Positions 30,993 through 64,000 of a DNA stretch of 64,000 bases are shown piece after piece. The translations under genes were made by a program, and so were the position numbers. The notes under the pieces are model-generated. The model was given only the letters and a program-made list of their open reading frames with translations, made no database searches and was not told the origin of the DNA. This DNA comes from Bacteroidaceae bacterium (GTDB lineage: Bacteria; Bacteroidota; Bacteroidia; Bacteroidales; Bacteroidaceae). Each line of letters opens with the position of its first letter. Position 1 is the stretch's first letter. The stretch covers positions 16,567 to 80,566 of the forward strand of contig JAZQTU010000006.1 of the NCBI GenBank assembly GCA_045630965.1, in the 5' to 3' direction.

Positions 30993-31010
30993 TTAGCTAA
31001 AATATGCTAA
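30993..31010. promoter_or_regulatory. Second, weaker palindrome TTAGCTAAAATATGCTAA
   Basis: Inverted arms TTAGC/GCTAA around an A/T-rich spacer, 34 nt upstream of the repressor ATG. It resembles the 30940 site. Confidence 0.25.
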
Positions 31011-32652: not shown

Positions 32653-32664
32653 TGTACATTGATT

Positions 32665-32955: not shown

Positions 32956-32958
32956 ATT

Positions 32959-35900
32959 ATGATATCAACGAACAATGACAATAGGAAAAAACGGAGTGAA
33001 AATAAAGATGTGTTCAATGCTGGCTATGAGAATGGGCTTTCGTTGAAAGGTATGGAATTTGGTGGAGAGGAACATGATATGTTTGCTACCGGGATGGATG
33101 CCATGAAAAGCCGTACGGCTGAAAAGTTGAACTATTTGACTGCTCCGGCTAATACCAAACAGCAGGAACTGGCCTTCAGGAACTCTTTTGCAGACTATAT
33201 GTTGCCTAAAGATTCTCAGGAACGTCATCGCAGGAATTATGCACTTTCAAGGGAGGCGCTCGATGATGTAGTCGGCGACTATTACAATAACAGCTTGAAA
33301 AGGAGATTTGAGATGAAGCGTGAGGATGCAAAAAGGGATGGTCGTAATGAATATATGCGTTATACATCTGTTCCTGGTGCCGACCCTGTCAATGCATACA
33401 AGGCTTCTGTGCGTGTCGATGATCCGGAGAGAGTTATTGATGAAACGATGAAAAGTGTGGACGATGATTATCTTATGAAACAGGTGGCGCCTTTGGCTTC
33501 GTATGGTGGCTATGATGCAAAGGAGTATGTCGATAATTTAGTAAAGCCGTCGTTGCGTGACAAAATGGTTAAAGAGTATATTGATGAAAATACTCCACGC
33601 AGCAGTGCTGAGTATGTCATGCGTTCTGCTTTTGACAATTCTCTAATGGGTAAAGTGGGGGCTCTTGGTTTGGCTGGGGATAAGTCTGCCAAGAGTAACC
33701 GTCTGCTTGCTTCCGAAGGAGTTGCCAATTATGATGCCAACAGAATGGAAAATTTTGCGGCAGGTGTCGGAGGTCTGCTTGTTGATACGCCTGCCTTTTC
33801 CGGTTTTGGAAGAGTCTCGGCTTCGATAGTGGGCAATGGAACCAGGAAGGCGGTTGAAAAGATTTCACGCAATGTCTTGTCGCGTTATAAGGACAGGCTT
33901 GTCAGCAAGGAATTCGCCGATGGCGTCGCACGCAAGGTTGTTGTAGAACGGCTGAAGAACCGCATAGTACAAGGTGCTACTGCTCAGGGTCTTACCCTTG
34001 GTGGGTATGACGTGGCAAACAGTGTGGCCGACGACATTCTTTATAACGGAACGGTCGATCCTGTCAAGGCTACAGGTTCTTTTGTCAAAGGATTTGCAAC
34101 GGGCGCGGCAGTTGGTGCTGTCGGTACATCAATGAGAGCACGCGTAAATGGCTTGACATCTGGAAAAAGATTGCTTTCCTCTGCGGGGGTGCTGAGCGCG
34201 GAGTCGGCTGTCTTTACAGCCGGAAGTGAACTGGACAAGCTGGCGCATGGTGTAGAGGTTGAGCCGATAGACCTGCTTTATGATTATGCAGAGAGTTCTG
34301 CAACTCTGCTTACAATGAGAATGGCCAATTGGCGTCCGAAAGGAGCTGCAGAAAAATTGGACAAGGAAGGGCATATAAAAGAAGAACTCAAACTCTCAAA
34401 ATCGCAAGCACAGGAACTTCGTGAGGCGAATGTCAATCCAGAAGAGTTTATGGAGATGATAGAACATGAATTGCGAATTCCTTCTCTCTCCAGCTCCGGT
34501 GCAAGATTGTTGAAGGAGAACTATGCCAAGCTAATGGCTGACAAGAACCTGTCTGCGGCTTCAAAATCAAAATTGATGTATCTTGTAGAGAATAAAATAA
34601 CATCTACACCGCCTGTGGTTTTTGATTATGAGGTTTCGCAAAATGAGCATGGAATATGGCTGGTGAAAATGCTTGATGCCGGCGGAGGGGTTGTTGAAAA
34701 TCTCTCTTTTGATAATGCCGGAGCTGCAAAAAGTCATCTCATTAAAGAGCGCGCAGGTATACGCAGGAACAGGATTGCTCATTTTGAAAATGAGTTGACT
34801 TCTGGTATCAATTCGTATAATTTTCTCCATGAAGCGGGGCTATATGCCAAAGAGAAGGGTGTCAGTGCCGACATCCTTGCTGAAGCAATGTACAAGAGTG
34901 CAAGAAAAGAACAACTCAATAGTACCGAGCAATTTATGATTGATGAGATTCTTGCCCGTTCATCGTATCATGAATCACAGATAAGCAGTGCGCTTTCAAA
35001 CGCAAGACGTAATATTGAAGAAAATTATAAGCTTGACAGAGGTGCTCTTTCGGCAATTGTCGACAAGCATTATTCGAATTGTACATTCACTGAAAATATG
35101 GCTCTTGACGAGTATGAGAACTTTGTACGTTCCGAGGTTGAAAGGATTAAGGAGCGTGCATCCGTGCCTCATCCTGCAGCGGTGCTCGGCATGAGCAATG
35201 CCGAAATCAAGCGTCGTGAGGCTGAAGAATACAATCAACGCCTGAATAATCGTCTTGCTGTGTCTGATGATGCGGTAACAAAACAGGATGCGGTTTTTGA
35301 AAAGTTGCGTGTTATTCCCGAAAACAGACCAGGACATGTCTGGAATGTTTATGGGCATGAGCTAAAGAAGGAGACTGTGGATGAGTATGAAAGACATGCG
35401 AGTGAGTTTTCAAGCAAGTTCGGTCAGGATATAGTATTCATTACAGACGAGCACCAGATTGAGAGACCAGCAGTAGAAACACCCGATGCTGTAAGAGAGT
35501 ACAACAACAGGCTGCATGCACTCGGTTGGGTCCATAAAGGAAAGGTGTATATAAACTTGCCGAATATTAAGGATCATGCTGAACTTGAAACTACAATAGT
35601 ACACGAAGTGGTGGGGCACCTTGGACTGAAGAAACTCTTTGGCCGTTATATGTATGACTTTATCGAGGATGTATACAAGAGCGCCGACGGTTCTGTAAGG
35701 CATGGCATAAACAAGATAAGGGATGCTTATGGCAAGACTGACATGTATACTGCAACAGAAGAGTATCTTGCAAGCCTTGTGGAAAAGGCGTATCCTAATG
35801 CTCAGGAGCGTAACCTTTTGGTCAGGTTCAAGGATTTTGTAAAAGGAATGCTTATAAGGCACAATATTTACAAGCCCAAGTATCGCAGAGTGAATGAAAA

Positions 35901-37512
35901 GGATTTACAGTCGATAATGGAAGCGCATTGCCGTTATGTGTTCAATAACAGGGATGCATCAAAACACCGTGGTGAGGTCTTTGGTAAATTCCGCAGTGCA
36001 ACTCTTGATGCTGAAGCTTATAGTAATCCGGATGATTATGCACGCCGTAAAAGGGATATGATACAGGAAGGCTCATATATGAAATGGACACCCGAAAAAT
36101 TCAAGGGGGCAAAATATCTTGTGAATTATCCCTATCTGCCTGCCAATATACAGGAAAGGATTATGAAGGAGACTGGAATGAGCGATGAGGCTCTTCGTAT
36201 GCAGAGTGAAGCGGCTAATTACCGTTTCGAGGGTAAGAAAGGAGCTAAAAACTACGGTAAAGCATATTATGAAGATATGGAAGAGGTGCTTGAGGATGCT
36301 GTATCCTTTGAGAAAGATGGTCTCTCTCCCTTGCAGATAAAGAAATTGACAGGCTGGGAGCGTGGCGCAGACGGTGAATGGCGTCGTGAAGTGTCGGAAT
36401 ATCCACGTCTGGTAAGAGATTATATATACGCTTCGCTGTTCGACAATAAACCGGAACTTGCAGAACTTTATAAAAAGATAAAGAAGGTGCCTTACGAAGC
36501 ATGGGGAGATACTGAAAAAGATGCTTGGGAGAGGGTTATGAAAGAGGGTAAACGTTATATGAAGAGGCCTGTTCTGCAGGATGTCGTCAACGACTTTGAA
36601 CTCTTTATCTCCTATCCCGAATTTGCAGCTATACCGGTAAGGATTGTTGAGGATGCTCCCTCGCTTGTACGTTACGACAGCAAGGCCAAGGAGATGGTAG
36701 TCGACAGGAAACTTTTTCTTTCTCCCGAGGCAAACGGCTATATGGCTGCAGCATTGCAGAATGTCATACAGGAGTATGAAGGGTTCAGCAAGGCGGTGTC
36801 GTTACGTCTGTTGTCGCTTGAAGGTAGGCTGGCAAAAAAATACAAGAATGCGCAGAAGTGCATTGCACTTGTAGACGGTGTGCGCAGAGAGTTGCCTTCC
36901 TTCGATGAGAATTCACAGATAGAACGCGCTTTTGAACGTGAATTTGGTATGGATATACAAACGTTCAAGAGAATGTATCCTACATACGATGACTATCTTT
37001 TCCATAAACTGACCGGGAAGAATTTCTCGTTCAGCGGTAATGTGGAGATGGAAAACGTACGCAAGCGTTACAAGATGAATGAAAAAGCCCGGAATTCTAC
37101 TCTTGCAGAAGAGACTGAATCGGTTCCTCGTGATAGGCAGGTGGTGGTAAAGAGGCTCGAAGACCTTGAAAAATATTTTACAGGACCGCTCGATGTTATT
37201 AACCGTTACGTGCACGATATACATTCTGACGAGCCTATGAAGGTGAGGTCGCTTGGAGGAAGGTTTGACAAGACAAAAGTGATGCCGGCCGAATTTGCTG
37301 AATTCGACAGTGAACTTGACAGTTATACCAAGTATCTTTTGCGTAATATGGTAAAGGAGAGGAGCGAAACCGGTGACTCTTACGGCTATAGGATGTATAA
37401 AGATCTAAAGGAACTTGGCAAAAAGGATATAAAGAAAAAGTTGGACAATTATGCAAAGGGTAGAGGTTGGTTCTGGAATATGAGTGATGATGACCTCAAT
37501 ATACTCAACTGA
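32959..37512 (+). CDS. Giant phage 'polyvalent'-type protein with zincin-like HExxH motif
   Basis: 1517-aa ORF immediately upstream of the portal gene. HEVVGH lies at 35602-35619 and TGWERGADGEWRRE at 36349-36390. Gly/Ala-rich hydrophobic segments span about aa 250-470. Confidence 0.6.
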   Translation: MISTNNDNRKKRSENKDVFNAGYENGLSLKGMEFGGEEHDMFATGMDAMKSRTAEKLNYLTAPANTKQQELAFRNSFADYMLPKDSQERHRRNYALSREALDDVVGDYYNNSLKRRFEMKREDAKRDGRNEYMRYTSVPGADPVNAYKASVRVDDPERVIDETMKSVDDDYLMKQVAPLASYGGYDAKEYVDNLVKPSLRDKMVKEYIDENTPRSSAEYVMRSAFDNSLMGKVGALGLAGDKSAKSNRLLASEGVANYDANRMENFAAGVGGLLVDTPAFSGFGRVSASIVGNGTRKAVEKISRNVLSRYKDRLVSKEFADGVARKVVVERLKNRIVQGATAQGLTLGGYDVANSVADDILYNGTVDPVKATGSFVKGFATGAAVGAVGTSMRARVNGLTSGKRLLSSAGVLSAESAVFTAGSELDKLAHGVEVEPIDLLYDYAESSATLLTMRMANWRPKGAAEKLDKEGHIKEELKLSKSQAQELREANVNPEEFMEMIEHELRIPSLSSSGARLLKENYAKLMADKNLSAASKSKLMYLVENKITSTPPVVFDYEVSQNEHGIWLVKMLDAGGGVVENLSFDNAGAAKSHLIKERAGIRRNRIAHFENELTSGINSYNFLHEAGLYAKEKGVSADILAEAMYKSARKEQLNSTEQFMIDEILARSSYHESQISSALSNARRNIEENYKLDRGALSAIVDKHYSNCTFTENMALDEYENFVRSEVERIKERASVPHPAAVLGMSNAEIKRREAEEYNQRLNNRLAVSDDAVTKQDAVFEKLRVIPENRPGHVWNVYGHELKKETVDEYERHASEFSSKFGQDIVFITDEHQIERPAVETPDAVREYNNRLHALGWVHKGKVYINLPNIKDHAELETTIVHEVVGHLGLKKLFGRYMYDFIEDVYKSADGSVRHGINKIRDAYGKTDMYTATEEYLASLVEKAYPNAQERNLLVRFKDFVKGMLIRHNIYKPKYRRVNEKDLQSIMEAHCRYVFNNRDASKHRGEVFGKFRSATLDAEAYSNPDDYARRKRDMIQEGSYMKWTPEKFKGAKYLVNYPYLPANIQERIMKETGMSDEALRMQSEAANYRFEGKKGAKNYGKAYYEDMEEVLEDAVSFEKDGLSPLQIKKLTGWERGADGEWRREVSEYPRLVRDYIYASLFDNKPELAELYKKIKKVPYEAWGDTEKDAWERVMKEGKRYMKRPVLQDVVNDFELFISYPEFAAIPVRIVEDAPSLVRYDSKAKEMVVDRKLFLSPEANGYMAAALQNVIQEYEGFSKAVSLRLLSLEGRLAKKYKNAQKCIALVDGVRRELPSFDENSQIERAFEREFGMDIQTFKRMYPTYDDYLFHKLTGKNFSFSGNVEMENVRKRYKMNEKARNSTLAEETESVPRDRQVVVKRLEDLEKYFTGPLDVINRYVHDIHSDEPMKVRSLGGRFDKTKVMPAEFAEFDSELDSYTKYLLRNMVKERSETGDSYGYRMYKDLKELGKKDIKKKLDNYAKGRGWFWNMSDDDLNILN

Positions 37513-37526
37513 TAAATTATGATGTT

Positions 37527-39431
37527 ATGAATAAGTTTCTTGATAAACGTGTCAAAGCGGGCACAAACATGCAGGTGCTTCCCGAAAAGAAGAGTTTCGG
37601 CGCAGCAAGGGAGTTTCTTGATGAATGTGCCGCCTGCTGGAATGCTCTTGATGAGGCTCGCCGCAAACTGCGGCGAAGCCTCATGTACAGCTACGGTGAC
37701 CAATGGGGTGACTATGTCACAGACCCAGACACTCTTTCTCAGATAACGGAAGGTGAACTGATTAAGAAAAACGGCAAGGTTCCGTTGAAGAACAACATGA
37801 TAGCCCCGATACTTAGTAATATCGATGGCCAATTACGCCAGAATCTCATGCGTCCGGTTTGTGTGGCACGTGACCAGACGGAATCCAAGGTCGGTGAGAT
37901 GATGTCTGTTGCGATAGAGTATGTCCATGACATCAATGAACTTGAAGAGTTGGATGCAGACTCAATGCGTATGCTGCTCAATGGCGGCATGATTGCCCAA
38001 AGGATAGAATACGGTGTAAATCCTGCAAAGGAACGTCGTGATGTGTGGGTGCATGGTGTCAATCCTTCGCGTCTGTTTTTCAATACCAATCTTGAGGATG
38101 TACGAATGTGGGATGTGACCTGTATCGGGGAAATTTTTGATTTGCCGCTTGATGAGGTCCTTGCACATTTTGGAACAACACCCGAAATGAAAACACTTAT
38201 TAAGGAGGCGTATGCACATGTCTCATCTTATGCCGACATCAACCGTGCCGTACAAGGTGACGAGTCGCGTAACCTTACGTTCTATACAGCGTCACGAAAG
38301 TCTCTCTGCCGTGTAATTCTCGGTTGGAAACTTGAATCGCGTGACGCCTACTATTGGAATGACGAGAAGAATGGTACATGGGGGTATTTGCCATATAATG
38401 ATGAGAGCAAAAAAGAACTTGATGAAGAGAATGAACGGCGTAGGCAGGAGAATTCTGGCAAGGGTGACGATGAGTTGTTGCTTGTCGATTACAGTTTTGC
38501 AACGGAACGTTACTGGTATTACCGTTATATGACTCCGTATGGTGACGTGCTTCAGGAAGGACGCAGTCCCTATTGGCATGGAGAACATAACTATGTCCTT
38601 CACATGTTTCCACTTGTACAGGGAAAACTGGGCAATTTCGTGGAGCAGTTCATTGACCAGCAGCGTGCAATCAACCGCACGGCTACACTTATTGATTTTA
38701 TTCGCGGTACCTCTTCGAAAGGTGTGCTTGTCGTTGACGACGATGCCTTTGAAAGCATGTCACGCGAGGATGTCATCGATGAGTATGTACGTTATAACGG
38801 CGTGCTTTTTGTCAAGCTCAAGCCGGGGCAGAGCATTGATGGTGTTGTGCGTCAGTACAATAGTGGAGCATCGGTTGCCGGTGACTTCGAATTGCTGAAC
38901 TTGCAGTTACGGTTGATAAATGAGATATCCGGTGTCAATTCGGCAATGCAGGGGCAGGCTCCAAAGGCTGGTACTCCGGCGTCATTATATGCCCAGCAGA
39001 TACAGAACTCGTCACTGAACCTTAAAGGGCTGTTTGACAGTTTCAGAACATTCCGTCGCCGTCGCGATACTAAAGTAATGAAGACGATACAACAGTTCTA
39101 CACCGAACAGCGTTATATCGATATTGCAGGCACACATTATTCTGAAGAGGCAAAATGGTATACCCCTGGAAAGGTACAGAATAGCGAAATTGACATTACC
39201 ATTTCCGAAGGTTACAATACTCCGGCATACCAGATGCTTGCAAATGATTTCCTTATGGAACTGTTCAGGTCGAATGCCGTGGATGTGAAGACAATGCTTG
39301 AGAATACTTCATTCCCATTTGCTGCCAAAATCCTTGAAGCTATAAAACGTAACGAGGAACAGCTAGCCAAAGGTGAACAACTCGAAGGTGTTCCTGAATA
39401 TTCACAAACAACTCCTATGCCAGCATTGTGA
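37527..39431 (+). CDS. Phage portal protein
   Basis: 634-aa ORF. The N-terminal LMYSYGDQWGDY... and NNMIAPILSNIDGQL blocks resemble podovirus-type portals. The acidic C-terminus and the size also fit. Confidence 0.65.
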   Translation: MNKFLDKRVKAGTNMQVLPEKKSFGAAREFLDECAACWNALDEARRKLRRSLMYSYGDQWGDYVTDPDTLSQITEGELIKKNGKVPLKNNMIAPILSNIDGQLRQNLMRPVCVARDQTESKVGEMMSVAIEYVHDINELEELDADSMRMLLNGGMIAQRIEYGVNPAKERRDVWVHGVNPSRLFFNTNLEDVRMWDVTCIGEIFDLPLDEVLAHFGTTPEMKTLIKEAYAHVSSYADINRAVQGDESRNLTFYTASRKSLCRVILGWKLESRDAYYWNDEKNGTWGYLPYNDESKKELDEENERRRQENSGKGDDELLLVDYSFATERYWYYRYMTPYGDVLQEGRSPYWHGEHNYVLHMFPLVQGKLGNFVEQFIDQQRAINRTATLIDFIRGTSSKGVLVVDDDAFESMSREDVIDEYVRYNGVLFVKLKPGQSIDGVVRQYNSGASVAGDFELLNLQLRLINEISGVNSAMQGQAPKAGTPASLYAQQIQNSSLNLKGLFDSFRTFRRRRDTKVMKTIQQFYTEQRYIDIAGTHYSEEAKWYTPGKVQNSEIDITISEGYNTPAYQMLANDFLMELFRSNAVDVKTMLENTSFPFAAKILEAIKRNEEQLAKGEQLEGVPEYSQTTPMPAL

Positions 39432-53034: not shown

Positions 53035-53080
53035 AATAGAAATCGGTTTCACACAAAATTGTGTGAAACCGATTTCTATT
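53035..53080. terminator. 46-nt perfect palindrome (22-bp stem) between convergent GH35 and terL
   Basis: AATAGAAATCGGTTTCACACAA AA-centre TTGTGTGAAACCGATTTCTATT. The right arm overlaps the terL stop codon (53079-53081). Confidence 0.75.
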
Positions 53081-55067
53081 ACATGCTCGCTTCGCTGACA
53101 ATCCTGCGTTTGCGTTTATTGGGGTTCTCTGTGGTGATTGGTGTGGGCAGTGGGTGGTTGTAGCATATCCACACTAATATGGCTGTTGCCATGACGCGGT
53201 CGTCATGGTTGCCTTCAATGGCGCCCATCTCTTTGCCGTTCTCCTTGTATTCGTAGAGGTCGAGTTCGTATGTTGTCTCAAGGCACCGTTCTATATATAA
53301 CCCGTCGCGCAAGGCCTTGATAAGGAAATTTATCACCATTGGTTTTGTGGAGCTGTTGGTGTGGAATCCCCACCGTCGTGGGCGTCCTTGCTTGACTTCC
53401 TGCAACGATGTACGGCAATAGAGGTTGCTGTATCTGCCCGATATTTCGTTCAGGATATACTCGAAGTTGTTGCCTTCGGTTCCTTCTGTCTCCAGCGTGT
53501 TGGCTTCTATCACAAGCAGGGCATTGTCGTATGCTCGTGCTATCTCCATGGCTTTCCATGCGAGCTTGTCATGTTCAATATGTCCGTGCCAGCATGCTGC
53601 AATCTCCGGCACTCCGCCGTCGGGCATTGCCCCACGGTCTGCTACCACTATGCATGAGTAGTCGGCTTTCTTGCTTGTTCCGCCTACATCTACAGTAACG
53701 ATGTATCTGTCGCGCATGTGCTGTCCGTCGTCGGGCATGAGCCACACGCGTAACATATCGCTTCCTTTGTCCTCACCCGGCAGGCACGGCACGAACTCAC
53801 TCTTGCCGTTTCGCGCGATGATCTCACCTACGAATAGCGGTGGGACGCAGTTCTCTCTAGCGTCGTTGACATACATTGTGCGGAATACTCTCCGTCCTGT
53901 GCTTTGGAACGCTTCGTTGGCTGTTGAAGGAAACTCGGAAAAGAGACGCCACTCGTCGGGCATCTCACGGCGTTTGTCGCGGTACCATGCAATGGCTTCA
54001 AGGGTAGCACCCAGCCTGAACAGCTCGTGCTCATATTCATCCATGCTACCGATGAATGCGCTGTAATCATTTTCTTTCATTGGCTTGCTGTAGAGGTCTA
54101 TGCTGAACCATGGAATAAATACAGGGGTGAAGTTGTTACGCTTTTCTGTGGCATCAATCCATGTTCTGTGAAAGAAATTTCCTACTCCCTTGGCTGTTGA
54201 TTCAATGACTTTCATTGTATAGGGTCCGCTGGCTATTGAACCGAATATTGACTGTACAAGGTCTTCGGGTTTTCGTCCGTGTGTGGCTTTCCACAAGCCA
54301 ACTTCGGTGAGGTGTGCCATGCTTATATCTTCACTTCTCAGGGAGTCGGGCTTTTGTGCCGACCCAAGCGAATAACGGCTGTTGCTCCAGCTTATGACAC
54401 GTGTCTTCTGTGCTCCTTGATAGGGCGAAGTTGTAAGCTGTTTGCCGCCTGTTGCCCATGTGGGGTAGCGCGAAATTACCTTTGCGAGCATTCCTGCCAC
54501 AATTGATGACTGTTTCTCTATGTCGCCACAGATGACGCTGTTCCAGTTGTTTTTGTGGACAAGCTGTATCCATAACATGTACAGCTGCGTCAGGGTAGAA
54601 CCACCCCATTGGCGTGCCTTGCATAAAATGATGTCTATCGGCTTTCCGGCAAGGCGCAACTCTTCCATGGCTTTCAGGTATATGCGTTGCGGACGGTTGA
54701 GGGTGAAGGCTGTGTCGCGTCCTTTGCCTTTGTCCGAAATTGTTGTCATGCTTCTTGCCCAATACTCAAAGTCATGCCTTATGCGTAACAGGCAAAAGTT
54801 GAGCCATAACTTTATAATGTTCCTGTTGTTCGCCTCCTGGCCGGCAATTTCATTGAGGTAGTGCTCGGCACCAAGCTCTGCAATCTGTTGTACAACCGGT
54901 TCGTCAAGCATGCTTGTAGGAAGGTTTATCTTTTCTATAGGAAATCCTTCCATTGTAACCCAGCTGCGTGGCACGGACATTGATCCTTCGCCTGTTATAG
55001 GATTATAAACGGCAGAGATTTCTCTCAGCCGTTCTCTATTCTTCTCTATGATTTTTTCTTTGTCCAT
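53079..55067 (-). CDS. terL: Terminase large subunit
   Basis: 662-aa ORF with Walker-A-like ILCKARQWGGSTLTQ. The C-terminal RNase-H-like nuclease has IVTVDVGGTSKKADYSCIVVADR and the terminal ...EGNHDDRVMATAILVW motif typical of TerL. Confidence 0.8.
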   Translation of the reverse strand: MDKEKIIEKNRERLREISAVYNPITGEGSMSVPRSWVTMEGFPIEKINLPTSMLDEPVVQQIAELGAEHYLNEIAGQEANNRNIIKLWLNFCLLRIRHDFEYWARSMTTISDKGKGRDTAFTLNRPQRIYLKAMEELRLAGKPIDIILCKARQWGGSTLTQLYMLWIQLVHKNNWNSVICGDIEKQSSIVAGMLAKVISRYPTWATGGKQLTTSPYQGAQKTRVISWSNSRYSLGSAQKPDSLRSEDISMAHLTEVGLWKATHGRKPEDLVQSIFGSIASGPYTMKVIESTAKGVGNFFHRTWIDATEKRNNFTPVFIPWFSIDLYSKPMKENDYSAFIGSMDEYEHELFRLGATLEAIAWYRDKRREMPDEWRLFSEFPSTANEAFQSTGRRVFRTMYVNDARENCVPPLFVGEIIARNGKSEFVPCLPGEDKGSDMLRVWLMPDDGQHMRDRYIVTVDVGGTSKKADYSCIVVADRGAMPDGGVPEIAACWHGHIEHDKLAWKAMEIARAYDNALLVIEANTLETEGTEGNNFEYILNEISGRYSNLYCRTSLQEVKQGRPRRWGFHTNSSTKPMVINFLIKALRDGLYIERCLETTYELDLYEYKENGKEMGAIEGNHDDRVMATAILVWICYNHPLPTPITTENPNKRKRRIVSEASM

Positions 55068-55127
55068 GTTGGATCGTGTTCCATTTTTTATATTGCAAGG
55101 AGAACTTGCCCATGCAGTATCATCTTT

Positions 55128-55604
55128 TTATATCCCGGCGAGGTCGGTTGCTCGGCGGCGTATCCTGCGCCTGCCGTATATCTTTGCGAACATCTGCTGT
55201 ACGTTGCTGTAGAGTGCTGCGCGTAGCGATATATGACTTTGTGCCATTTCGGGACGGCGCGTAAGCAACCATTGTGCTGTAACTTCATTGACAAGGTAAT
55301 CCGTTATTGATTGCTGCAACAATGGCAATAGGTAGCTCGGGTATTCACACTCTGTCTCAAATGTTATTCCCAACTCATCGTTGTCTGTGGATGTTGATAT
55401 AAAAGGGAAACGGAGTGCAACGGCAGTAACCAGCTCGTTACATGCCTTTGTCATGAACATGTAAAGCAGTTCTTCATCATCTTTGCTACTTTGTATGGTG
55501 ACGGCATCGATATCCTTGCGCTTTGCCGCCTCTCCCATGTAATAGTTCCTTAAATCAATCTGCCGTAGCAGTCCGTCTTTCCCTATAATAATTGTGTTTT
55601 TCAT
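55128..55604 (-). CDS. Hypothetical phage protein (158 aa), paralog of 55616-56086; Arg-rich C-terminus
   Basis: Located immediately upstream of terL, a position compatible with a small terminase or head-completion role. Ends with ...YGRRRIRRRATDLAGI. Confidence 0.6.
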   Translation of the reverse strand: MKNTIIIGKDGLLRQIDLRNYYMGEAAKRKDIDAVTIQSSKDDEELLYMFMTKACNELVTAVALRFPFISTSTDNDELGITFETECEYPSYLLPLLQQSITDYLVNEVTAQWLLTRRPEMAQSHISLRAALYSNVQQMFAKIYGRRRIRRRATDLAGI

Positions 55605-55615
55605 AGTCTGTTCCT

Positions 55616-56086
55616 TTATGGCTTTTTACGCAGTGCAAGCAGTTCCTGCAACTGTTTCATGCATAGCTGTATCTTGCCTGCCGAAAGGTTGGCATCGTCG
55701 CTTTTGACAAGAATATACCATTGTTGCATGCATCTGTTGAATACAATGTTCGTTATGATGTCTTCAAGTGCTTCGGTAACTCCCTCAGGATAATTGGCTG
55801 GAATAGTTATGCAAAAGCGGTGAATCCTGTAAAGGTTGTTATCCTGTTCTGTGTCGTGCGAAACTGTACATTCACCTAAATAATGTCCTATGGTAACAGC
55901 ACACTCGTTGATTGCTGTCAATACATAATCGTCAAAGAGCCTTTTGTCGTCATCTGTCATTATTAATCTTGCCGACAGCTTTGACGGTTGTCCGGCGCTT
56001 TCCTTTACAAGCGCGCTCTTGCCGCTTTCGTTCTTCATTCTTTCAAAAAGCCTTTTGTCGCTTATACTGATTTCTATCTCCTTCAT
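55616..56086 (-). CDS. Hypothetical phage protein (156 aa), paralog of 55128-55604
   Basis: It shares a collinear pattern with its neighbour: an acidic stretch, A.NE..(V/T)T, a YP motif, I(T/I).(Y/I).(V/F)N, then QW(L/Y). Confidence 0.6.
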   Translation of the reverse strand: MKEIEISISDKRLFERMKNESGKSALVKESAGQPSKLSARLIMTDDDKRLFDDYVLTAINECAVTIGHYLGECTVSHDTEQDNNLYRIHRFCITIPANYPEGVTEALEDIITNIVFNRCMQQWYILVKSDDANLSAGKIQLCMKQLQELLALRKKP

Positions 56087-56150
56087 CCTTTCTCTGTTTT
56101 GTTATTGCACAAAGGTATATATGTCGTTGGCTGTGAAGTTTGCTGTTTTG

Positions 56151-56579
56151 CTAATTCAAGGCAAATTCTCTGTTGCGTTGGCGTATCGTCTTGTAGATTA
56201 TACCTCTGAAGGTCTCCTCTTCAAGGTAGAATGACGGTGCCGGTTCTTCAATAATCTTTTCAAGGATAATATATTTGTAGCGCTTGCTGCAATCTTTTAC
56301 CTGTTGCTTGTATCTGCGGTATATCTCCTTGTACATGGCAATCTTGTTCTCGTTGACTATCGGTAGTTTCTTCTTTCGCGATAACAACGAAACGAACCTT
56401 CGTGCATTCTCAAATGTAACATAGAAACGCGGAGCCTTGCTCTTTACAGCGTACTCAATCACTTCGTTCTGCGTTGCGAACGGCCTTGTTTTTCGTACCT
56501 CCTTGTACGATTCGTAGAAACTGTTGATTACATCCTGTTTACGCATCTCGCGAACAGAATTGTTCATGGTGTTTTTCAT
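56151..56579 (-). CDS. Hypothetical basic protein (142 aa), first gene of packaging operon
   Basis: The ORF opens at 56642, but the ATG at 56579 (MKNTMNNS...) lies 17 nt downstream of a perfect TACTTTTG -7 box. Lys/Arg-rich, and possibly DNA-binding or a small terminase. Confidence 0.55.
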   Translation of the reverse strand: MKNTMNNSVREMRKQDVINSFYESYKEVRKTRPFATQNEVIEYAVKSKAPRFYVTFENARRFVSLLSRKKKLPIVNENKIAMYKEIYRRYKQQVKDCSKRYKYIILEKIIEEPAPSFYLEEETFRGIIYKTIRQRNREFALN

Positions 56580-56596: not shown

Positions 56597-56639
56597 CAAA
56601 AGTATAGCCGAAAATGGCTAATAGTTTGCTGTTTTGACA
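56597..56639 (-). promoter_or_regulatory. Packaging-operon promoter: TGTCAAAACAGCAAA box, TAGCC-N6-GGCTA palindrome, TACTTTTG -7 box
   Basis: The minus strand reads TGTCAAAACAGCAAA (56639-56625), then a 20-nt spacer containing the palindrome (plus strand TAGCCGAAAATGGCTA, 56605-56620), then TACTTTTG (56604-56597). The ATG at 56579 follows 17 nt later. Confidence 0.6.
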
Positions 56640-56836: not shown

Positions 56837-57619
56837 ATGGAAAAGAATTTCAACAAAGAAAAGAACGGCGCTTACGGCATGTCTGCTGTAGGCAATGGGA
56901 AAATCACTGCTCTTCATGAGCCACTAGCGGAACAGAACGCCTATTCGGCTCTTGACAGTGAACTCAAGAAAATGTTCGGCGAGGGTTTCGAACTCTCCGA
57001 CAGGTTATCACAGGATTTGCTTTTGCAGCATCTTCGTACGAATAGGGAACAGAATGAGCGTCTTGCCGGTATGCTTGAACGTGATCCTCGTCTGGCACAG
57101 TTGCTGACCGATGTTGTCAGTGGCAAGCGCAACGCTCACAGTGCCATGGCGCGCTATTTCGGTACTTCGTTCATGACTGTCGACGAGGACAGCCCTGAAT
57201 TTGAGGAGATAATGCTTGCCGACGAGGAACGAAAGGAGGAGATGATGCGTCTTGCAAACGACCGTAATGAGTATGAACGAAACCTTGCAGAGAGTGTACC
57301 TGTCATTGAAGAATTCTGCAAAGGGAAGGGCTATGATGCCTCTGACTTCATGGACAGGGTGTGGGAGTCACTTGTCTTTCCAATTCTGGCAGGAAAATAC
57401 ACTAACGAGGTGTGTGTGGCTCTCGATCATGCGGTCACATATGAGAAGGATGTCGAGGATGCCTTTATTGCCGGTGACATAAAGGGACGCAATACGAATA
57501 TCCAGCGTATGAAGGAGAATTTTGGGGACGGTATGCCAAAGGGAATGAGCAGCGTTGCTCCCGATACAGAAATAAAGCGCAAAAGGAATTCTCTTATCGA
57601 CAAGGCTCTTAATGCCTGA
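56837..57619 (+). CDS. Scaffolding-like protein
   Basis: The ATG at 56837 (MEKNFNKEK...) is preferred over the ORF opening at 56771. About 260 aa, acidic and helical (Glu/Asp/Arg/Leu-rich). It sits directly upstream of the capsid-like gene. Confidence 0.45.
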   Translation: MEKNFNKEKNGAYGMSAVGNGKITALHEPLAEQNAYSALDSELKKMFGEGFELSDRLSQDLLLQHLRTNREQNERLAGMLERDPRLAQLLTDVVSGKRNAHSAMARYFGTSFMTVDEDSPEFEEIMLADEERKEEMMRLANDRNEYERNLAESVPVIEEFCKGKGYDASDFMDRVWESLVFPILAGKYTNEVCVALDHAVTYEKDVEDAFIAGDIKGRNTNIQRMKENFGDGMPKGMSSVAPDTEIKRKRNSLIDKALNA

Positions 57620-57657
57620 TTGTAAAAAACTCAATTATTAACCTATAAAATTTTACT

Positions 57658-59277
57658 ATGAAAAAAATCATTTCATTCTTGAGGGAGAACCCTCTGTTTG
57701 TAATCATGTCGCTCGCAGCTATCGCATGCTACATTTGGGGTGACGCTGTCAGTGGTATAATAATGGCCGGTGTCAATCTCATGCCTGCCGGGTCGCCAAA
57801 ACCTTCAACCGGTATTGCCGGTTTGCCAACGCAGGGGCTTGGAGAGGCCACTACTGTTTCCAATGCCAGTGAACTAGGCAATGATCTCATTGAAGCCGAT
57901 ACTGATGACCAGATTATTGGCATTGCAAGTGACGAAAGTGTCATCGATACCATTAAGCGCAGGATACGCCGTCAGGTGCGAGTGAACTCATTTGAAGTAG
58001 ACCACTATCTTATCGACGACAAACGTTCCAAGGCCTACACTAACGCAACCTATACAGGTATGAACGCAACACGTGCCGAAATTCCATTCTCAACAACAGG
58101 AGAGAGAAAAATCTTCCAGCAGTACTATACGGCTATCTGTAAGGGTGTCAATGGTTATGACCCGACAGGACAGATAGAGCTTTCGGGAGTCGACCTCATG
58201 CTGTTCTTCGTGGATAAGAACACGACAAGCGAAGCGCCTATTGCCATGGCTGTCAACGGTCCTAAGATAAATGCAACCGATGAGTACTGCGTGATTCCTA
58301 CAATTCCTATGGGTACAGAGATTATTTTGCTCTCTTCGGCAGCATACGAGACACAGAAGTTTATCGCTCCCTCTACAATTGTACCTGTGCCTGAACGCAT
58401 GTACTTGCAAAAACAGTTATGCAACAGCATTGTGAGTGACTATTTCGCTGCACAGAAAAAACGCATCCAGTTCAGCGAGGCACAGATTGCAGAAGCTGTG
58501 TTGCGTCAGTTCCGTCTTGAGAGTTGCCGTACAGCGTGGGTCGGACAGCCCGGAAAGTTTAAGGTACAGGCTATGGACAACGCTATGGGTTATCAGTGGG
58601 ATTACTTCTCAAAAGGTATCCGTTGGCAGTTCAAGCGTCAGTACGATCTCTCTTCGAATATCACATTTGCTGATTTAATCAACCTATCAATGGTGAAGTT
58701 CACAGGTTTCAATTGTACCAAGCGTGCAATATGGCTGTTGGGTAAGCAGTTGTTGAATGATATTCAGAAAATAGACCTGACACTGCACAAGAATATCAGT
58801 GTCACCGGCGACAAGGTTTTTGGTATCGAGTGTACAAAAATACACACAGTGTTCGGTGATATCGACCTCATCCACGATCCTACTCTCGATGCCCTTGGCT
58901 ATGCTCACTGTGGTGGTCTTATTGATGAGAACGGTCTTGTGCGCTACTATATGAAGAACGAGGATGCAAAAACCGAAAATGTCGACGGTGAAGAGGCTAA
59001 ACGCGAGGTTGTTATGACTATCGACTGCTTGTGTCTTAAGGGATATTCTCATATCTGGGTGAACGGCTCTTCTGCCGAAAGCGATATTCCAGGTGCATCG
59101 CGCGTGACAAGTTCTGACAGTTTGCCGTCATCGCCGAATATCAACGATGTGGTAATCCTTACCGCCGATGTCAACCATGAGGTGAATGGTGAGAGCAAGA
59201 AGTGGTTCTGTGCCGGTTCTGTTGTCGCTTTCAACGGAAAGACTTGGGTGGAATATACTGGCGAGATTTTGGTGTAA
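57658..59277 (+). CDS. Major capsid protein candidate
   Basis: 539-aa ORF following the scaffold-like gene and ending at a strong terminator, a typical placement for an MCP. No fold assignment is possible by eye. Confidence 0.55.
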   Translation: MKKIISFLRENPLFVIMSLAAIACYIWGDAVSGIIMAGVNLMPAGSPKPSTGIAGLPTQGLGEATTVSNASELGNDLIEADTDDQIIGIASDESVIDTIKRRIRRQVRVNSFEVDHYLIDDKRSKAYTNATYTGMNATRAEIPFSTTGERKIFQQYYTAICKGVNGYDPTGQIELSGVDLMLFFVDKNTTSEAPIAMAVNGPKINATDEYCVIPTIPMGTEIILLSSAAYETQKFIAPSTIVPVPERMYLQKQLCNSIVSDYFAAQKKRIQFSEAQIAEAVLRQFRLESCRTAWVGQPGKFKVQAMDNAMGYQWDYFSKGIRWQFKRQYDLSSNITFADLINLSMVKFTGFNCTKRAIWLLGKQLLNDIQKIDLTLHKNISVTGDKVFGIECTKIHTVFGDIDLIHDPTLDALGYAHCGGLIDENGLVRYYMKNEDAKTENVDGEEAKREVVMTIDCLCLKGYSHIWVNGSSAESDIPGASRVTSSDSLPSSPNINDVVILTADVNHEVNGESKKWFCAGSVVAFNGKTWVEYTGEILV

Positions 59278-59295
59278 CATAACTTTCTTTTCAAT

Positions 59296-59335
59296 GACAC
59301 CCGGAGGCTCTTTGGGGTAATCCGGGTGTCTTTTT
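59296..59335 (+). terminator. Rho-independent terminator/attenuator after capsid-like gene
   Basis: 10-bp stem GACACCCGGA / TCCGGGTGTC followed by TTTTT. Confidence 0.8.
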
Positions 59336-59354
59336 ATTAAAAACAATATCAGAT

Positions 59355-59789
59355 ATGAAAAAGAGAATAACATACGAGATTCATGGACAGATTGAACGCA
59401 ATAGTTATTTCCGCATAGGCAAGGCTCTTGTGCGTATAGAATTCAGTGGTGGTGCAATAAACTCCACAGGTGTCTATCCGGCACAGTATGTCACCGACAA
59501 TCCATTGTTCCAGAAAGCAATTGAGAGCAGCGATGCTTACCAAAAAGGTGAAATAAAACGAGGAAGGGTAGAAGTGATAGAAGAAACCGGCAAGGATGAA
59601 AATGCTGATGCCGGAACAGTATTGCATGAAACCTCTTTGGCTGTATTTCCCGAAGTACAGAATATGCAGCAGGCACGTTCCGTTTTAATGGATGAACCGT
59701 ACAACTGTACTCTTGCCCAGCTTCAGAACAAGAATATGATAAAGGCTGTGGCGTTGGAGAAGGGTGTCACATTTCCTAACTGGTTATGA
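59355..59789 (+). CDS. Hypothetical virion protein (144 aa)
   Basis: The ORF overlaps the next gene by 4 nt (ATGA coupling). No recognisable motif. Confidence 0.55.
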   Translation: MKKRITYEIHGQIERNSYFRIGKALVRIEFSGGAINSTGVYPAQYVTDNPLFQKAIESSDAYQKGEIKRGRVEVIEETGKDENADAGTVLHETSLAVFPEVQNMQQARSVLMDEPYNCTLAQLQNKNMIKAVALEKGVTFPNWL

Positions 59790-60430
59790 CGGCAACTGAT
59801 ACTCTTGTAAAGAAGGTACGTCGCCTTGTCAACGAGGCTGAGAACGATTCCGATGTCTCGTTGATAACCGAAGACATGCGTTCGCTTGACGATACGATAC
59901 TGGAACTTCTTCCACAGGCTGTAGCTTTGGTGCAACGCTGTTCACATGGAGGACATGTGAATGTCAAGGCTCTGTCTAATGAAGCAAAAAAAGTGCAGGA
60001 AGTTTCTGACGGCTCATACAATGTTGCCTTGCCAGGTGATTTCTTCAAGCTTGTGTCGTTGCAGCTTACTTCGTGGAAAAGGGCCTGCATGGAAATTTCA
60101 TCGCCAGAATCACTGGATGCTGTAAATGCAGTAAATGGCAGTTCTTGTGTTGGAGCTTTCAACCCGGTATGCGTAGAGAGCATCGTGGATGGTGGTGCGA
60201 AAGTTGTAAAACTTTTTCCGTGTAATGCCAGTGATGAAGTTGTACATTTTGTGTACGAGGCACAATTTAATGTTGCCGACGGGTTGGCGATGTGCGACAG
60301 TTACATGGCAGATGCTGTAACATATGCCTGTACCTCTCTTTTGTATACGGTGTTCGAGAAACATGATGCTGCAAAACCCTTCATGTCGTATGCCATGGCG
60401 CTGTGTGGAGGTGAAAAGAGTTCTAATTGA
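59786..60430 (+). CDS. Hypothetical head-completion/connector-like protein (214 aa)
   Basis: Translationally coupled to its neighbours. The function is guessed from position only. Confidence 0.5.
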   Translation: MTATDTLVKKVRRLVNEAENDSDVSLITEDMRSLDDTILELLPQAVALVQRCSHGGHVNVKALSNEAKKVQEVSDGSYNVALPGDFFKLVSLQLTSWKRACMEISSPESLDAVNAVNGSSCVGAFNPVCVESIVDGGAKVVKLFPCNASDEVVHFVYEAQFNVADGLAMCDSYMADAVTYACTSLLYTVFEKHDAAKPFMSYAMALCGGEKSSN

Positions 60431-60444
60431 TAATTGTAAATATT

Positions 60445-60912
60445 ATGGATAGCTTGAAGTTTGTAATGGCATCCTTGTTGGCGAATGTTGCAGGGTTGCT
60501 TTTTCCAATACGCAACGATATTTTCGGTTTGGTGTTGCTCTTCAGTGTTAATTTTATTGTGGGTTTGCTTGCCGACGTTGGAAACCATCGTGACTGGAGT
60601 TTCCGTAAGGCATTCTGTTTCTTCCGTGATGCAGCGATATATTTTGTCATGGTAACATCAATATATATGCTCGGCCGTCTCAAGGGCGAAGAGGTTGCTG
60701 CTGTGTATTGTGTTTCCTTCATGATTTACGTTGCCATATATTTCTACGGGACAAATATACTGCGTAATGCAAGGCTTATCACAAATGAGAAAAGTACGCT
60801 TTACCGCATACTCGACTTTCTCTACTATATTATGAGCCTTCGTGTCCTCGAACGATATGCATGCCTGAAAGATTATTTCGACTATGAGAAACGTGAGGAT
60901 AATAATCGTTAG
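60445..60912 (+). CDS. Holin-like 4-TM membrane protein
   Basis: The ATG at 60445 (MDSLKF...) is preferred, though the ORF opens with TTG at 60427. Four hydrophobic helices and a highly charged C-terminal tail (DYFDYEKREDNNR). The downstream spanin-like gene overlaps it by 29 nt. Confidence 0.5.
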   Translation: MDSLKFVMASLLANVAGLLFPIRNDIFGLVLLFSVNFIVGLLADVGNHRDWSFRKAFCFFRDAAIYFVMVTSIYMLGRLKGEEVAAVYCVSFMIYVAIYFYGTNILRNARLITNEKSTLYRILDFLYYIMSLRVLERYACLKDYFDYEKREDNNR

Positions 60913-61267
60913 CGTCATACTTCTGCTGTTCATCAGTTGCAGGGTAAAGGACACAGTGACGACTGAACGTGCATCGGCAAATATGCGTGTTGAACGGGTG
61001 CTTGTCGACAGCATAATCCTAAGGGATAGTGTGGTGATAAGGGAGAGGTGCGACACTGTGTTCTTTACCAAATACCGTACACTTTACAAGGAACGTCTTC
61101 GTCACGACACTGTAGTCAAATGTGATACGGTATATACCGAGCGCGTGGTTACTGTGAAGGATACCAAAGGCTCTTCATTCTTGTGGCTGTTGCTGCTGCC
61201 ATTGTTGGCTGTGCTTTGGAAAGTTGGAGTCTTTGACCTCTTACGTAAAATTATTTTGAGAAAATAG
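60884..61267 (+). CDS. Unimolecular-spanin-like protein (N-terminal lipoprotein signal + C-terminal TM)
   Basis: 127-aa ORF with lipobox-like IIIVSVILLLFISC, a beta-rich charged middle, and a C-terminal TM segment SSFLWLLLLPLLAVLWKVGVF followed by a basic tail. This architecture matches u-spanins such as T1 gp11. Confidence 0.5.
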   Translation: MRNVRIIIVSVILLLFISCRVKDTVTTERASANMRVERVLVDSIILRDSVVIRERCDTVFFTKYRTLYKERLRHDTVVKCDTVYTERVVTVKDTKGSSFLWLLLLPLLAVLWKVGVFDLLRKIILRK

Positions 61268-61271
61268 ATAT

Positions 61272-64000
61272 ATGCATAAGAATTTTTCATTCAAAGGGGT
61301 GGTGAGGAGCAATGACAATCTTCTTGCCAATGAGGGAGAATGTCTGGAACTGGTCAACCTCCGTATGGTGAACGGCTCTCTTCGCCCTATCCCAACCATG
61401 GTCGAGGAGGCTTGCCTGTATAGTGAATATTCCGCGATATATTGGCATGGAAAGGCATCGTGCTATATGTGTATAACAAAAGATGCTGAACGTAGTGTCG
61501 ATTTCTACGATGCACAATGGAATCTGCTGCTCGGTAATCAGGGAACAAAACTCCATTTCCCGTTGCTTACAAAGGTCAGAAGTGTGGAATTTATGGGATA
61601 TGTTGTTTCGTGTATTACTGACAACGGTATACGTTATCTGCTTTATAGTAACGGAACCTATCGCTGGCTTGGCGAAACTCCCATAATACCAACTTTGACT
61701 ATTACTCCTTCTGCAGCAGTGCATAGCGTGGATACTACTGTCTCCTTTACAACAAATACGGTGGATACGCCTGTCTCTTCGTTGTGGCAGTACAATTCAC
61801 GTGGTTATTTTGACGAATGCATTGCAAAATCCAACAAAGCCGGGTATTACATAGACCGTGCGTTGTTTAGGTTTGCATTGCGCCTGTATGACGGATCGTA
61901 CATTTATGTTTCACATCCAATATATGTGAGCAATGATGCCGAAGTGGATGGTGTCTCACGTGATGCCGGAAACCTTGTGGCCGTAAAGAATGACGCTTCC
62001 TCTTCCTCTTCTACATACAAGGTGAAGGTGGTTGGCTTCAAGCCTCAGCTCAAGTTCGATAACCTGAAAATGGAGGACTGGGAAGGAGTTGTTGTGGGTA
62101 TAGACGTCTTTACCACCGGTTCTATAATGGGTAATAAGGTAGATGAAGCCCTTGTTACTGTACTTGATACAGAAACAAAGGAACACACTACCGAAAGGAT
62201 AGAGGTCTACAAGAATAAGGAACTTGATGAGATATATGCCGAAACAGGTGAAGCTTCGCTATATTATAAGGTGGCTGAATTCAGTATCTGGGGCAAATGC
62301 CAGCACAGTGTCGATGATGTCTCTCAGGCGAATATTGTGTTGCAGGATGCCTTAAGCTCTTTTGAGCAACGACATACAATGTCATCGATAGTCCCGGATT
62401 GCAGCTATATGTTCAACAATAGGTTGCATGTGGCATCGTTGCGCGAATATCTGTTCAAAGGATATGAACGCTCTTCGTTGTTGCCTGTTGGTGTTGGAAA
62501 GGAGATGATTGACATGGTTGTGGTGCGTACAAGGTTAAACACACAGAATGGCATATCAACTGTCTTGAATACTTTTGAGAATGTATTTGTCGGATATGAC
62601 AAGGATACATTCCTATTGCCTCCCTTGCTCTCTTATCCCGATTCGCGCGCATTCGAGATGAGTGTCTTCTTCTACTACGATACGGAATGGTTCGGTAAGC
62701 ATTTTATTCTTACACCTCATAAATATCTTAACATGTCACAGTATATCCATAAAACATCATTTGGATATTCGGTGACTGTGCAATCTATCTTTGCCAGTGG
62801 AGGTGGCATTGCCGGTTCGCTGTCAGCAGCAACGGCAGTAGAACTGTTCGGAGAGCAACCTGCAACCCACGAGGTGGTCTATTCTGCATCTTTACACGGG
62901 TGGACATACAAAGGGAGTGCCTTTCCGCCCAAGGAGTACTCCTCGTTAAGGATTTTTGCAATACCACGTGATGTAAAGGATGGTGACAAAATTGTGATTA
63001 CTATAAGCAAGTCGACATCTTCAACCACATTCATTGACATCGGTAATATACAGTTTGACAGCACATGGGAGGTGTTGGGTAGCATTGACGATTGTGGCAA
63101 AGAGGAGAATGTCTATGAGATACGTGAGAATGTTATGAAGGTATCTGTAGTTGAGAATCCTTTTATATTTCCAGTAAAGTGTACTTATCCTCTTTCTCAG
63201 GGAAAGATAGTTGCGCTCTCGACCAACCGTGCTGCGATGTCCGAAGGACAGTTCGGAGAACATCCTCTGTACATATTCTCACAGGAGGGTATAGCAGTGA
63301 TGTCTGTAGATGCTTCGGGAAAAACGGCTTACAGCAATATTTACCCCGTTTCTCATGAAGTGTGCTGCAATGCAGACATGGTATGCGGAACCGATTCTGG
63401 CGTTCTTTTTCTTGGCTTACAGGGTGTGATGCTCATATCGGGAAACCGTTGTGTAAGGTTGTCTGTTGCCATAGACAATGAAAGTGATGATACGGCATTG
63501 TTGGAGCCGTCGGGTATAATAAGCCGCATAGCCTCCATGCATGGGCTTGGTGATGTGTTGGACAATTTGCATTTCCATGACTTCATGTGTGGTGCAAAGG
63601 TTATACGTAATGCAACCATGGGTGAGTTGTTGTTCTGTAATGCTGACTATGCGTACAGTTATATATATTCACTATCGGCGAATGTCTGGAGCAAAACTGA
63701 TATGAGGCTCTGTGGGTTTGTTCAAAAAAGAGAAGGTGTAGCTATGTTCAATAATACAGCCGGAACCACTAGGGTTCTTGTTCCGGGCGATAATGCTGCC
63801 GGTTCGAATAAGGTATTGCTGATTACGCGCCCACATCACTTTGGAACCAAAATACCAAAGCGCATAATGCAACTGATGCTGCATGCCAGTCTCGCAAAGC
63901 CACAGGGTAGTGGTAGCTCGTCGGCATTTGTCTCTTGCTTTCTGCTGTGTAGCAACGATGGGGTGAATTTCAAACTGGTAACAGGGTGTGAAAAGAAAAA
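61272..64000 (+). CDS. Large virion (tail/adsorption apparatus?) protein, 5' part; open at window end
   Basis: Not in the supplied ORF track. I read the frame from the ATG at 61272 codon by codon to 64000 (909 codons) and found no stop. It starts 5 nt after the spanin-like stop. No recognisable motif. Confidence 0.8.
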   Translation, partial: MHKNFSFKGVVRSNDNLLANEGECLELVNLRMVNGSLRPIPTMVEEACLYSEYSAIYWHGKASCYMCITKDAERSVDFYDAQWNLLLGNQGTKLHFPLLTKVRSVEFMGYVVSCITDNGIRYLLYSNGTYRWLGETPIIPTLTITPSAAVHSVDTTVSFTTNTVDTPVSSLWQYNSRGYFDECIAKSNKAGYYIDRALFRFALRLYDGSYIYVSHPIYVSNDAEVDGVSRDAGNLVAVKNDASSSSSTYKVKVVGFKPQLKFDNLKMEDWEGVVVGIDVFTTGSIMGNKVDEALVTVLDTETKEHTTERIEVYKNKELDEIYAETGEASLYYKVAEFSIWGKCQHSVDDVSQANIVLQDALSSFEQRHTMSSIVPDCSYMFNNRLHVASLREYLFKGYERSSLLPVGVGKEMIDMVVVRTRLNTQNGISTVLNTFENVFVGYDKDTFLLPPLLSYPDSRAFEMSVFFYYDTEWFGKHFILTPHKYLNMSQYIHKTSFGYSVTVQSIFASGGGIAGSLSAATAVELFGEQPATHEVVYSASLHGWTYKGSAFPPKEYSSLRIFAIPRDVKDGDKIVITISKSTSSTTFIDIGNIQFDSTWEVLGSIDDCGKEENVYEIRENVMKVSVVENPFIFPVKCTYPLSQGKIVALSTNRAAMSEGQFGEHPLYIFSQEGIAVMSVDASGKTAYSNIYPVSHEVCCNADMVCGTDSGVLFLGLQGVMLISGNRCVRLSVAIDNESDDTALLEPSGIISRIASMHGLGDVLDNLHFHDFMCGAKVIRNATMGELLFCNADYAYSYIYSLSANVWSKTDMRLCGFVQKREGVAMFNNTAGTTRVLVPGDNAAGSNKVLLITRPHHFGTKIPKRIMQLMLHASLAKPQGSGSSSAFVSCFLLCSNDGVNFKLVTGCEKK

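Follow-up and report, generated by a model that had tools for sequence, protein, structure and literature searches.

The 64,000-nucleotide stretch of a Bacteroidaceae contig analyzed here (the window) carries the palindrome TAGCC-N6-GGCTA at two places, beside the gene for an S24-type repressor (REP) and in the promoter of the operon that ends in terL (Table 1), which raises the question of whether a single repressor acts on both. The two copies, sites A1 and B, are identical at 14 of 16 positions. A sequence-only reading of the window, whose coordinates and letters for both palindromes are confirmed here, had proposed that a dimeric REP binds these sites, regulates its own gene, and occludes the packaging promoter, so that a repressor in one block of phage-derived genes (block A) controls another block (block B) in trans. 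A weaker relative that it had pointed to, site A2, is likewise present and is conserved across species.

Occurrence of the palindrome in the window and in the genus

An exhaustive scan of the window for TAGCC-N6-GGCTA returned the same two matches with no mismatch and with one mismatch allowed, and a search for exact copies in the 2,011,269-base assembly to which the window belongs (G000) gave these two only. The genome holds no additional exact copy in coding DNA or in unrelated intergenic DNA. The expected number of exact matches in the window is 0.02, and two copies were reached in 0 of 100 shuffles, which agrees with the earlier estimate of well under one chance occurrence in 64 kb. At the genome scale, however, the count is not enriched: the genome contains three copies of the reversed control pattern versus two palindromes, and the totals for 41 genomes of the genus are 77 for the palindrome and 201 for the reversed control. 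The palindrome count per genome is no higher than chance, two per genome being the chance level, and the case for a functional site therefore rests on the position of the copies and on their conservation. The feature that goes beyond chance is the location of the two copies, in the two divergent promoter regions of a phage-derived element, together with the conservation of these positions. The roughly 2.6-fold rarity of the palindrome relative to the control in the 41 genomes could reflect the avoidance of spurious operators or a mere dinucleotide bias.

The motif is better written TAGCCA-N4-TGGCTA, which is the consensus at both loci. By chance, a given position matches at least 9 of the 12 fixed bases with a probability of 3e-4, at least 10 with 2.7e-5, and at least 11 with 3e-6; in the G000 genome, only six positions reach 11 or more. 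The other near-matches checked in this genome lie mostly within coding DNA.

Table 1. Features of the window that bear on the palindrome and on the phage-derived element (position 1 is the first base of the window)
Feature	Positions	Strand	Description
Putative operator A1	30940..30955		TAGCCAAATATGGCTA; perfect 6-4-6 dyad; top position weight matrix (PWM) match in the genome
-7 box of the predicted leftward A123-operon promoter	30956..30963	-	TATATTTG; directly abuts A1
Putative operator A2	30993..31010		TTAGCTAAAATATGCTAA; degenerate copy of the dyad, 9/12
Distal rightward -7 box	30864..30871	+	TATATTTG; conserved TAtnTTTG block; faces the leftward promoter; putative function
A123 and A66	30196..30794	-	Genes under the leftward promoter, predicted to be controlled by A1
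REP	31044..31676	+	210 aa; HTH and peptidase S24 repressor
Putative operator B	56605..56620		TAGCCGAAAATGGCTA; 11/12; in the spacer of the terL-operon promoter
-7 box of the predicted terL-operon promoter	56597..56604	-	TACTTTTG; perfect; conserved as TAt(a/t)TTTG
Upstream activator-type box	56626..56639	-	TGTCAAAACAGCAA; common to three other promoters of the element
Other promoters with the upstream box	32033-32045	-
	32072-32084	+
	56773-56785	+
Host genes tyrS, tRNA-Lys, lrgAB	before block A		Pfam/PHROG scans
Block A	29182-39431		Small leftward genes, REP, 1517-aa LPD protein, P22-like portal
Operon A174-A98-LPD giant protein-P22-like portal	32128..39431	+
Housekeeping genes, ligA to GH35 beta-galactosidase	between the blocks		13.6 kb
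Block B	53079 to slightly past the end of the window		terL and three small leftward genes; structural genes rightward
Operon B142-B156-B158-terL	53079..56579	-	Predicted to be under operator B
Structural operon	56838..64000	+	B260, capsid-like B539, B144, SU10-type adaptor, holin-like protein, B127, B909
Host genes purH, guaA, gap	after block B

Layout and inheritance of the phage-derived element

The genes of the element are dispersed among host genes. The terL product matches PHROG 2 (terminase large subunit; E=1.5e-22), the portal protein matches the Pfam family P22_portal (E=1.9e-36), and the last protein of block B is longer than 909 aa. The element is contiguous in G002, G017, G011, G006, and G021, in the order terL<-B158<-(B156)<-B142, B260->capsid->...->B909, A66<-A123, REP->, with A123 and A66 syntenic beside REP and the structural operon lying between sites B and A in this ancestral order. 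Blocks A and B thus make up the two halves of a single old element, which is present in about 39 of 40 sampled species of the genus, is contiguous in most of them, and is rearranged in G000. The proposed action of a block A repressor on block B in trans is supported overall, but the blocks are not independent of each other, and their separation by host genes is a rearrangement of an old circuit specific to G000.

The organisms are uncultured Bacteroidaceae of the ruminant hindgut. The portal gene (75 to 88% identity) and B142, the first gene of the terL operon, are each found in 39 of 40 genomes of the genus, and the capsid gene is sporadic elsewhere in the family, occurring in 6 of 34 other genera. 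The portal-ligA junction is common to G000, G002, G017, and G011, and the identities of the element proteins follow the same species order as those of LigA and TyrRS. Between G000 and every relative, dN is 0.10 to 0.32 and dS is above 2 or undefined (saturated). Together, the shared junction, the order of identities, and the low dN against saturated dS indicate vertical descent with purifying selection. Several species have the portal gene on another contig or 100 kb from REP. The portal gene (37527-39431) and terL (53079-55067) of the window are convergent, with the housekeeping genes between them; in a related, contiguous prophage of another genus (G060), terL and the portal gene are also convergent and only about 117 nt apart, which is the natural phage order.

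Two further observations concern these genes. The portal genes of one sub-lineage (G007, G009, G012, G019, and G022) match in two pieces (residues 1-309 and 306-624) with extra in-frame sequence between them, in open frames of 698 to 741 aa, and the extra sequence looks like an insertion domain or an intein-like insert. In addition, the match to the ligA orthologue at G021:C83:5298-7310 contains two in-frame TAA stops, which may be an assembly error or mark a pseudogene.

Promoter context of the three sites

The promoter positions given here are consensus matches. A common architecture precedes REP in all 20 loci read. It begins with the distal rightward TAtnTTTG block, which is followed by TAGCC-N6-GGCT(A/G) fused to CAAATATA, and it continues with cGAGTTG, then TTAGnnAAAAnnnGCTA overlapping a -7-like TAnnTTGG, then TCTAAATAA and the REP start codon. 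CAAATATA, which is the reverse complement of a perfect Bacteroidetes -7 box (TATATTTG), is invariant in 19 of 20 species, and the leftward -7 box fits the Bacteroidetes consensus TAnnTTTG. Since A1 directly abuts this box, it probably covers the leftward start site. The position of A1 is conserved in 20 of 20 species read, with 8 to 12 of the 12 consensus positions retained. A2 is a conserved block in the same upstream footprint and lies in the spacer of the predicted proximal promoter of REP, which comprises a -33-like GTTG at 30984-30987 and the -7-like TAATTTGG at 31008-31015. One species, G005, has a perfect TAGCCAAAGTTGGCTA at the A2 position. The offset between A1 and A2 is 54 to 55 bp in 18 of 20 species, or about five helical turns.

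Site B lies on the minus strand between a TGTCA...CAGCAA box and a perfect -7 box, as the sequence-only reading had placed it. The box, TGTCA-N4-CAGCAA, is conserved and is present in four copies in the window. The three box-headed promoters without an operator have -7 boxes that match at 7 of 8 positions (TAACTTAG, TTCTTTTG, and TTCCTTTG), and among the four, the terL-operon promoter alone has an 8/8 -7 box and alone has the candidate operator. The position of B is conserved in about 28 of 30 species loci, and nearly all 30 share the arrangement TGTTGATAA..TGnCAAAACAGCAA-N4-5-TAGCCATTTTTG(A/G)CTA-TAtnTTTG-..CAAAAAAGCAG-ATG upstream of B142. Conservation by itself does not set the palindrome apart at this locus, because the entire 75 nt upstream of B142 are highly conserved. 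In G005 and G049, the terL promoter has no palindrome, and G005 keeps REP and A2. In the G060 prophage, the box and the -7 box are the same, but the palindrome is ATTAAA-N7-TTTAAT, and a REP homologue was not found within 60 kb of this prophage. From these sequences, the palindrome appears to be dispensable for the function of the terL promoter, and the pattern in G060 is that expected of an immunity-specific operator.

Comparative evidence on a probable protein-binding site

A PWM built from the A1 sites of 19 other species ranks A1 of the window first and B second among about 4 million positions, and a PWM built from the B sites of 23 other species ranks B of the window first and A1 second in the genome. 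Synonymous sites are saturated even against the closest species, so the conservation of these non-coding positions implies selection. The aligned A1, A2, and B positions score 8 to 12 of 12, with A1 or B reaching only 8 to 9 in several species. About 33 of the 77 exact palindromes in the 41 genomes fall in the two intergenic regions, which make up roughly 0.02% of the DNA; about 21 of them are at the REP intergenic region and 12 at that of B142. Changes in the half-sites are non-compensatory (TAGTC..GGCTA and TAGCC..GACTA), as is expected for a protein site. Moreover, operator B is perfect or near-perfect where the halves of the element are far apart (25 kb in G000 and 21 to 24 kb in G007, G009, and G010), and its retention at such distances is as expected for a diffusible factor. 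On this evidence, the palindrome is very probably a conserved protein-binding operator.

Some extra exact copies in relatives were set aside. One of the extra palindromes in G008 is the core of a GC-rich terminator-like stem, the other is without clear context, and an extra copy in G050 is unplaced.

The repressor REP

REP matches Pfam PF00717 (peptidase S24) with an E value of 5.5e-9 (36.2 bits versus a cut-off of 23.3) and, over residues 3-208, PHROG 4 (transcriptional repressor) with an E value of 3.6e-15. A sequence search of the PDB with REP alone gave no match, and only the search with the REP family profile gave matches, to the NtrC-family HTH domain 4l5e (E=5.7e-4, residues 5-41) and, weakly, to LexA (residues 110-177). 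The HTH (window 31044-31160) resembles the NtrC/Fis type and not the CI/XRE type or the LexA winged helix. The motifs G-x-S129-M-E-P and R-M-I-K168 and the pair A95-G96 within P-V-S-A-G do not vary in 11 to 20 orthologues. PQRTLNRQ, in the recognition-helix region of the N-terminal domain, is invariant as well, in keeping with an invariant consensus half-site. The REP of G005, only 51% identical, keeps the cleavage site, the Ser/Lys dyad, and PQRTLNRQ. The conserved S24 domain, Ala-Gly site, and Ser/Lys dyad suggest that REP is autocleavable, and recA is present in the genome.

REP orthologues occur in all 24 sampled genomes of the genus, with 46 to 80% identity, and the REP gene adjoins A1 and A2. 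REP is also the only HTH-bearing S24 protein in G000; the second S24 match is an open frame of only 160 aa, which is too short for a separate DNA-binding domain and therefore looks UmuD-like. REP probably binds the palindrome and represses both halves of the element.

A role of REP as a host SOS regulator like the LexA of Bacteroidetes was considered and rejected: the published motifs differ from the dyad and no repair gene carries the dyad, so that REP is better regarded as the element's own switch. The best dyad sites genome-wide are A1, B, and sites in a variable island on contig C35.

A variable segment of 7 to 8 kb, possibly a cargo slot, lies directly downstream of REP and before A93 in G017 and G011 (loci L055/L056 and L057); G000 lacks this segment.

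Alternative explanations for the palindrome

The palindrome could be a true operator whose binder is a different protein encoded by the element, acting in place of REP or as its competitor; candidates are a Cro-like or antirepressor-type factor and the reader of the TGTCA-N4-CAGCAA box. Several small conserved genes are under these promoters (A123, A66, B142, and a 78-aa gene), and in lambdoid switches, two proteins use the same operators. Nor does any co-variation tie REP to the sites: A1, A2, and B vary independently between species, and as the recognition helix of REP and the consensus half-site are both invariant, a test of helix/half-site co-variation is impossible. However, REP is always the gene beside A1 and A2, a 16-bp dyad suits a dimeric HTH/S24 protein, and G005 keeps REP together with its perfect A2. 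In addition, the AlphaFold models of A123 (pLDDT 77; a weak thioredoxin-like resemblance) and B142 (pLDDT 83) have no PDB match at E<=0.001 and show no DNA-binding fold. A binder other than REP is thus unlikely, although it is the alternative that deserves the most weight.

A structural role in the promoter, for instance as part of a spacer that RNA polymerase or a dedicated sigma factor recognizes, is quite improbable. It would account for the direct abutment or overlap of the palindrome with the -7 element at B and A2 and for the conservation of the whole promoter, but A1 lies downstream of its -7 box, in a different register, and the same type of promoter exists without the palindrome, both at the other three box-headed promoters of the element and in G005, G049, and the G060 prophage.

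Still less probable is an RNA hairpin, acting as a leader or terminator in transcripts that cross the palindrome. In its favor, the leftward transcript would carry A1 at its 5' end, and transcripts from the distal rightward promoter would carry it in a long leader; some of the substitutions still allow G-U pairing on one strand, and the G008 copy lies within a terminator-like stem, which is 10 bp long. Site B, however, is upstream of its -7 box and of the divergent promoter and is therefore probably not transcribed; the stem is just 5 to 6 bp with an A/T loop, and substitutions such as TAGCC..GACTA and TAGCA..GGCTG break the pairing. Chance resemblance, finally, is what genome-wide counts would suggest, with about two exact copies expected per 2 Mb and three of the reversed control, but it is refuted by the comparative data, as dozens of species whose synonymous sites are saturated keep the positions at both loci, the sites predict each other, and so large a share of the exact copies falls in so little DNA.

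A proposed switch and its relation to known systems

The computational predictions that follow from reading the palindrome as an operator were all borne out, with binding predicted from sequence. In the proposed switch, REP would be a dimeric HTH protein with an autocleavable S24 domain and TAGCCA-N4-TGGCTA its operator, and three operators would hold off three promoters while REP is intact. At the leftward A123 promoter, A1 would act just downstream of the -7 box, probably over the start site; A2 would fill the spacer of the proximal REP promoter and provide autoregulation; and the distance of five helical turns between them suggests cooperative binding. B would fill the spacer between the activator-type box and the perfect -7 box of the B142-terL packaging promoter. 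The occlusion of the packaging promoter put forward earlier fits this position, but autoregulation would more likely act through A2 than through A1. On DNA damage, activated RecA would stimulate the self-cleavage of REP at Ala95-Gly96, which would open the three promoters. The other structural operons, which have the same box, an imperfect -7 box, and no operator, would wait for an activator. The terL promoter would be expected to fire without one and would for this reason need direct repression.

A wider interpretation is that a podovirus-derived particle system kept throughout the genus works as a two-tier SOS switch, in which REP locks the terL promoter and a REP-controlled product activates the dispersed box-headed operons, an action in trans that would have let the system survive repeated rearrangements. 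We offer it tentatively, as a possibility that is open to real doubt. For the activator, the first genes predicted to be under REP control were considered: the models of A123 and B142 gave no match to a DNA-binding fold, and Pfam and PHROGs gave no function for them.

The predicted switch shares several features with lambda CI and P22 C2, including a C-terminal S24 domain with the Ala-Gly, Ser, and Lys residues of autocleavage (for REP, by sequence), 16-bp dyad operators, two of them in phase beside the repressor gene, and autoregulation with a divergent promoter pair, which is predicted here. It differs from them in that the HTH of REP is NtrC/Fis-like rather than CI/XRE, that the element is genus-fixed and dispersed and not a mobile prophage, and that an operator lies inside the promoter of the terminase operon, which CI-type repressors normally leave untouched. 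Direct control of the terminase operon by the repressor is unusual for CI-type switches.

In the pyocin system of Pseudomonas aeruginosa (PrtR/PrtN/P-box), PrtR is a RecA-responsive S24 repressor, and the structural operons carry a common activator box. The element resembles this system in having an S24 repressor, for which a RecA response is predicted, and structural operons of a domesticated phage with a common upstream box. PrtR, however, acts only via the activator gene, whereas here the terL operon itself carries the putative operator, between the box and the -7 element.

RogA, which controls the gene transfer agent (GTA) of Caulobacter crescentus, joins an HTH to an S24-like domain that lacks the catalytic residues, and its binding to GGAA-N4-TTCC is limited to the activator promoter (PMC9632790). 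The RogA-GafYZ system likewise combines a LexA/CI-like repressor, inverted-repeat sites, and a domesticated multi-locus phage-particle system (PMC9632790), which is recognized here from its genes. REP differs from RogA in keeping the Ser, Lys, and Ala-Gly residues and in having a predicted site on the packaging operon; phylum and motif also differ. PrtR/PrtN/P-box and RogA-GafYZ are the closest working analogues.

Non-canonical LexA proteins of Bacteroidetes, with the motifs GGA-N5-TCC and CTAA-N5-TTAG, regulate DNA-repair genes (PMC8565304). They belong to the same phylum and resemble REP in combining a phage-repressor-like N-terminal domain with S24 and in having palindromic operators with a fixed spacer (PMC8565304), but the best sites predicted for REP are confined to the phage-derived element plus the variable island.

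The predicted repressor-operator pair, which is of the CI/LexA type, is textbook material; it is the setting that is unusual, namely, a genus-fixed, dispersed particle system in Bacteroidaceae that is GTA-like in gene content. The layout of the terminase promoter is also unusual, since the predicted operator is embedded between the activator-type box and a -7 box that fits the consensus. The shared operator would explain how the halves could drift 25 to 80 kb apart yet stay co-regulated. Its 16 bp would also offer a precise entry point to the switch that induces this particle system of phage origin, which about 40 sampled species inherited vertically, and the model predicts that DNA damage triggers the expression of particle genes. 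A decisive bench test would require only REP and three short DNA sites, with no need to grow the organism. No GTA is named for this order in a recent survey (PMC12946183), and if the two-tier interpretation is true, the element would represent the first GTA-like or tailocin-like system to be described from Bacteroidota.

Operator-like modules in a variable island

Contig C35 of G000 (locus L065) carries three promoter-like modules, TAG(C/T)AAAAAnnGGCTA-AAAT(A/G)T(A/T)TGCA, at 6483-6509, 10193-10219, and 11969-11995. The variable island around them contains glycosyltransferase genes and a SocA/Panacea toxin-antitoxin pair. An ORF-poor region (9402-10106) upstream of the SocA/Panacea gene holds three copies of a 100-nt repeat that are 66 to 79% identical and have no Rfam match. 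Two of the modules match the REP dyad at 11 of 12 positions, and two precede TATAAAAAAGCAGAATC, a sequence similar to the B142 leader. The module is sporadic, being present in 3 of 41 genomes of the genus (G000, G054, and G010), and is therefore not counted in the conserved regulon; it may be a captured copy of an operator-bearing promoter.
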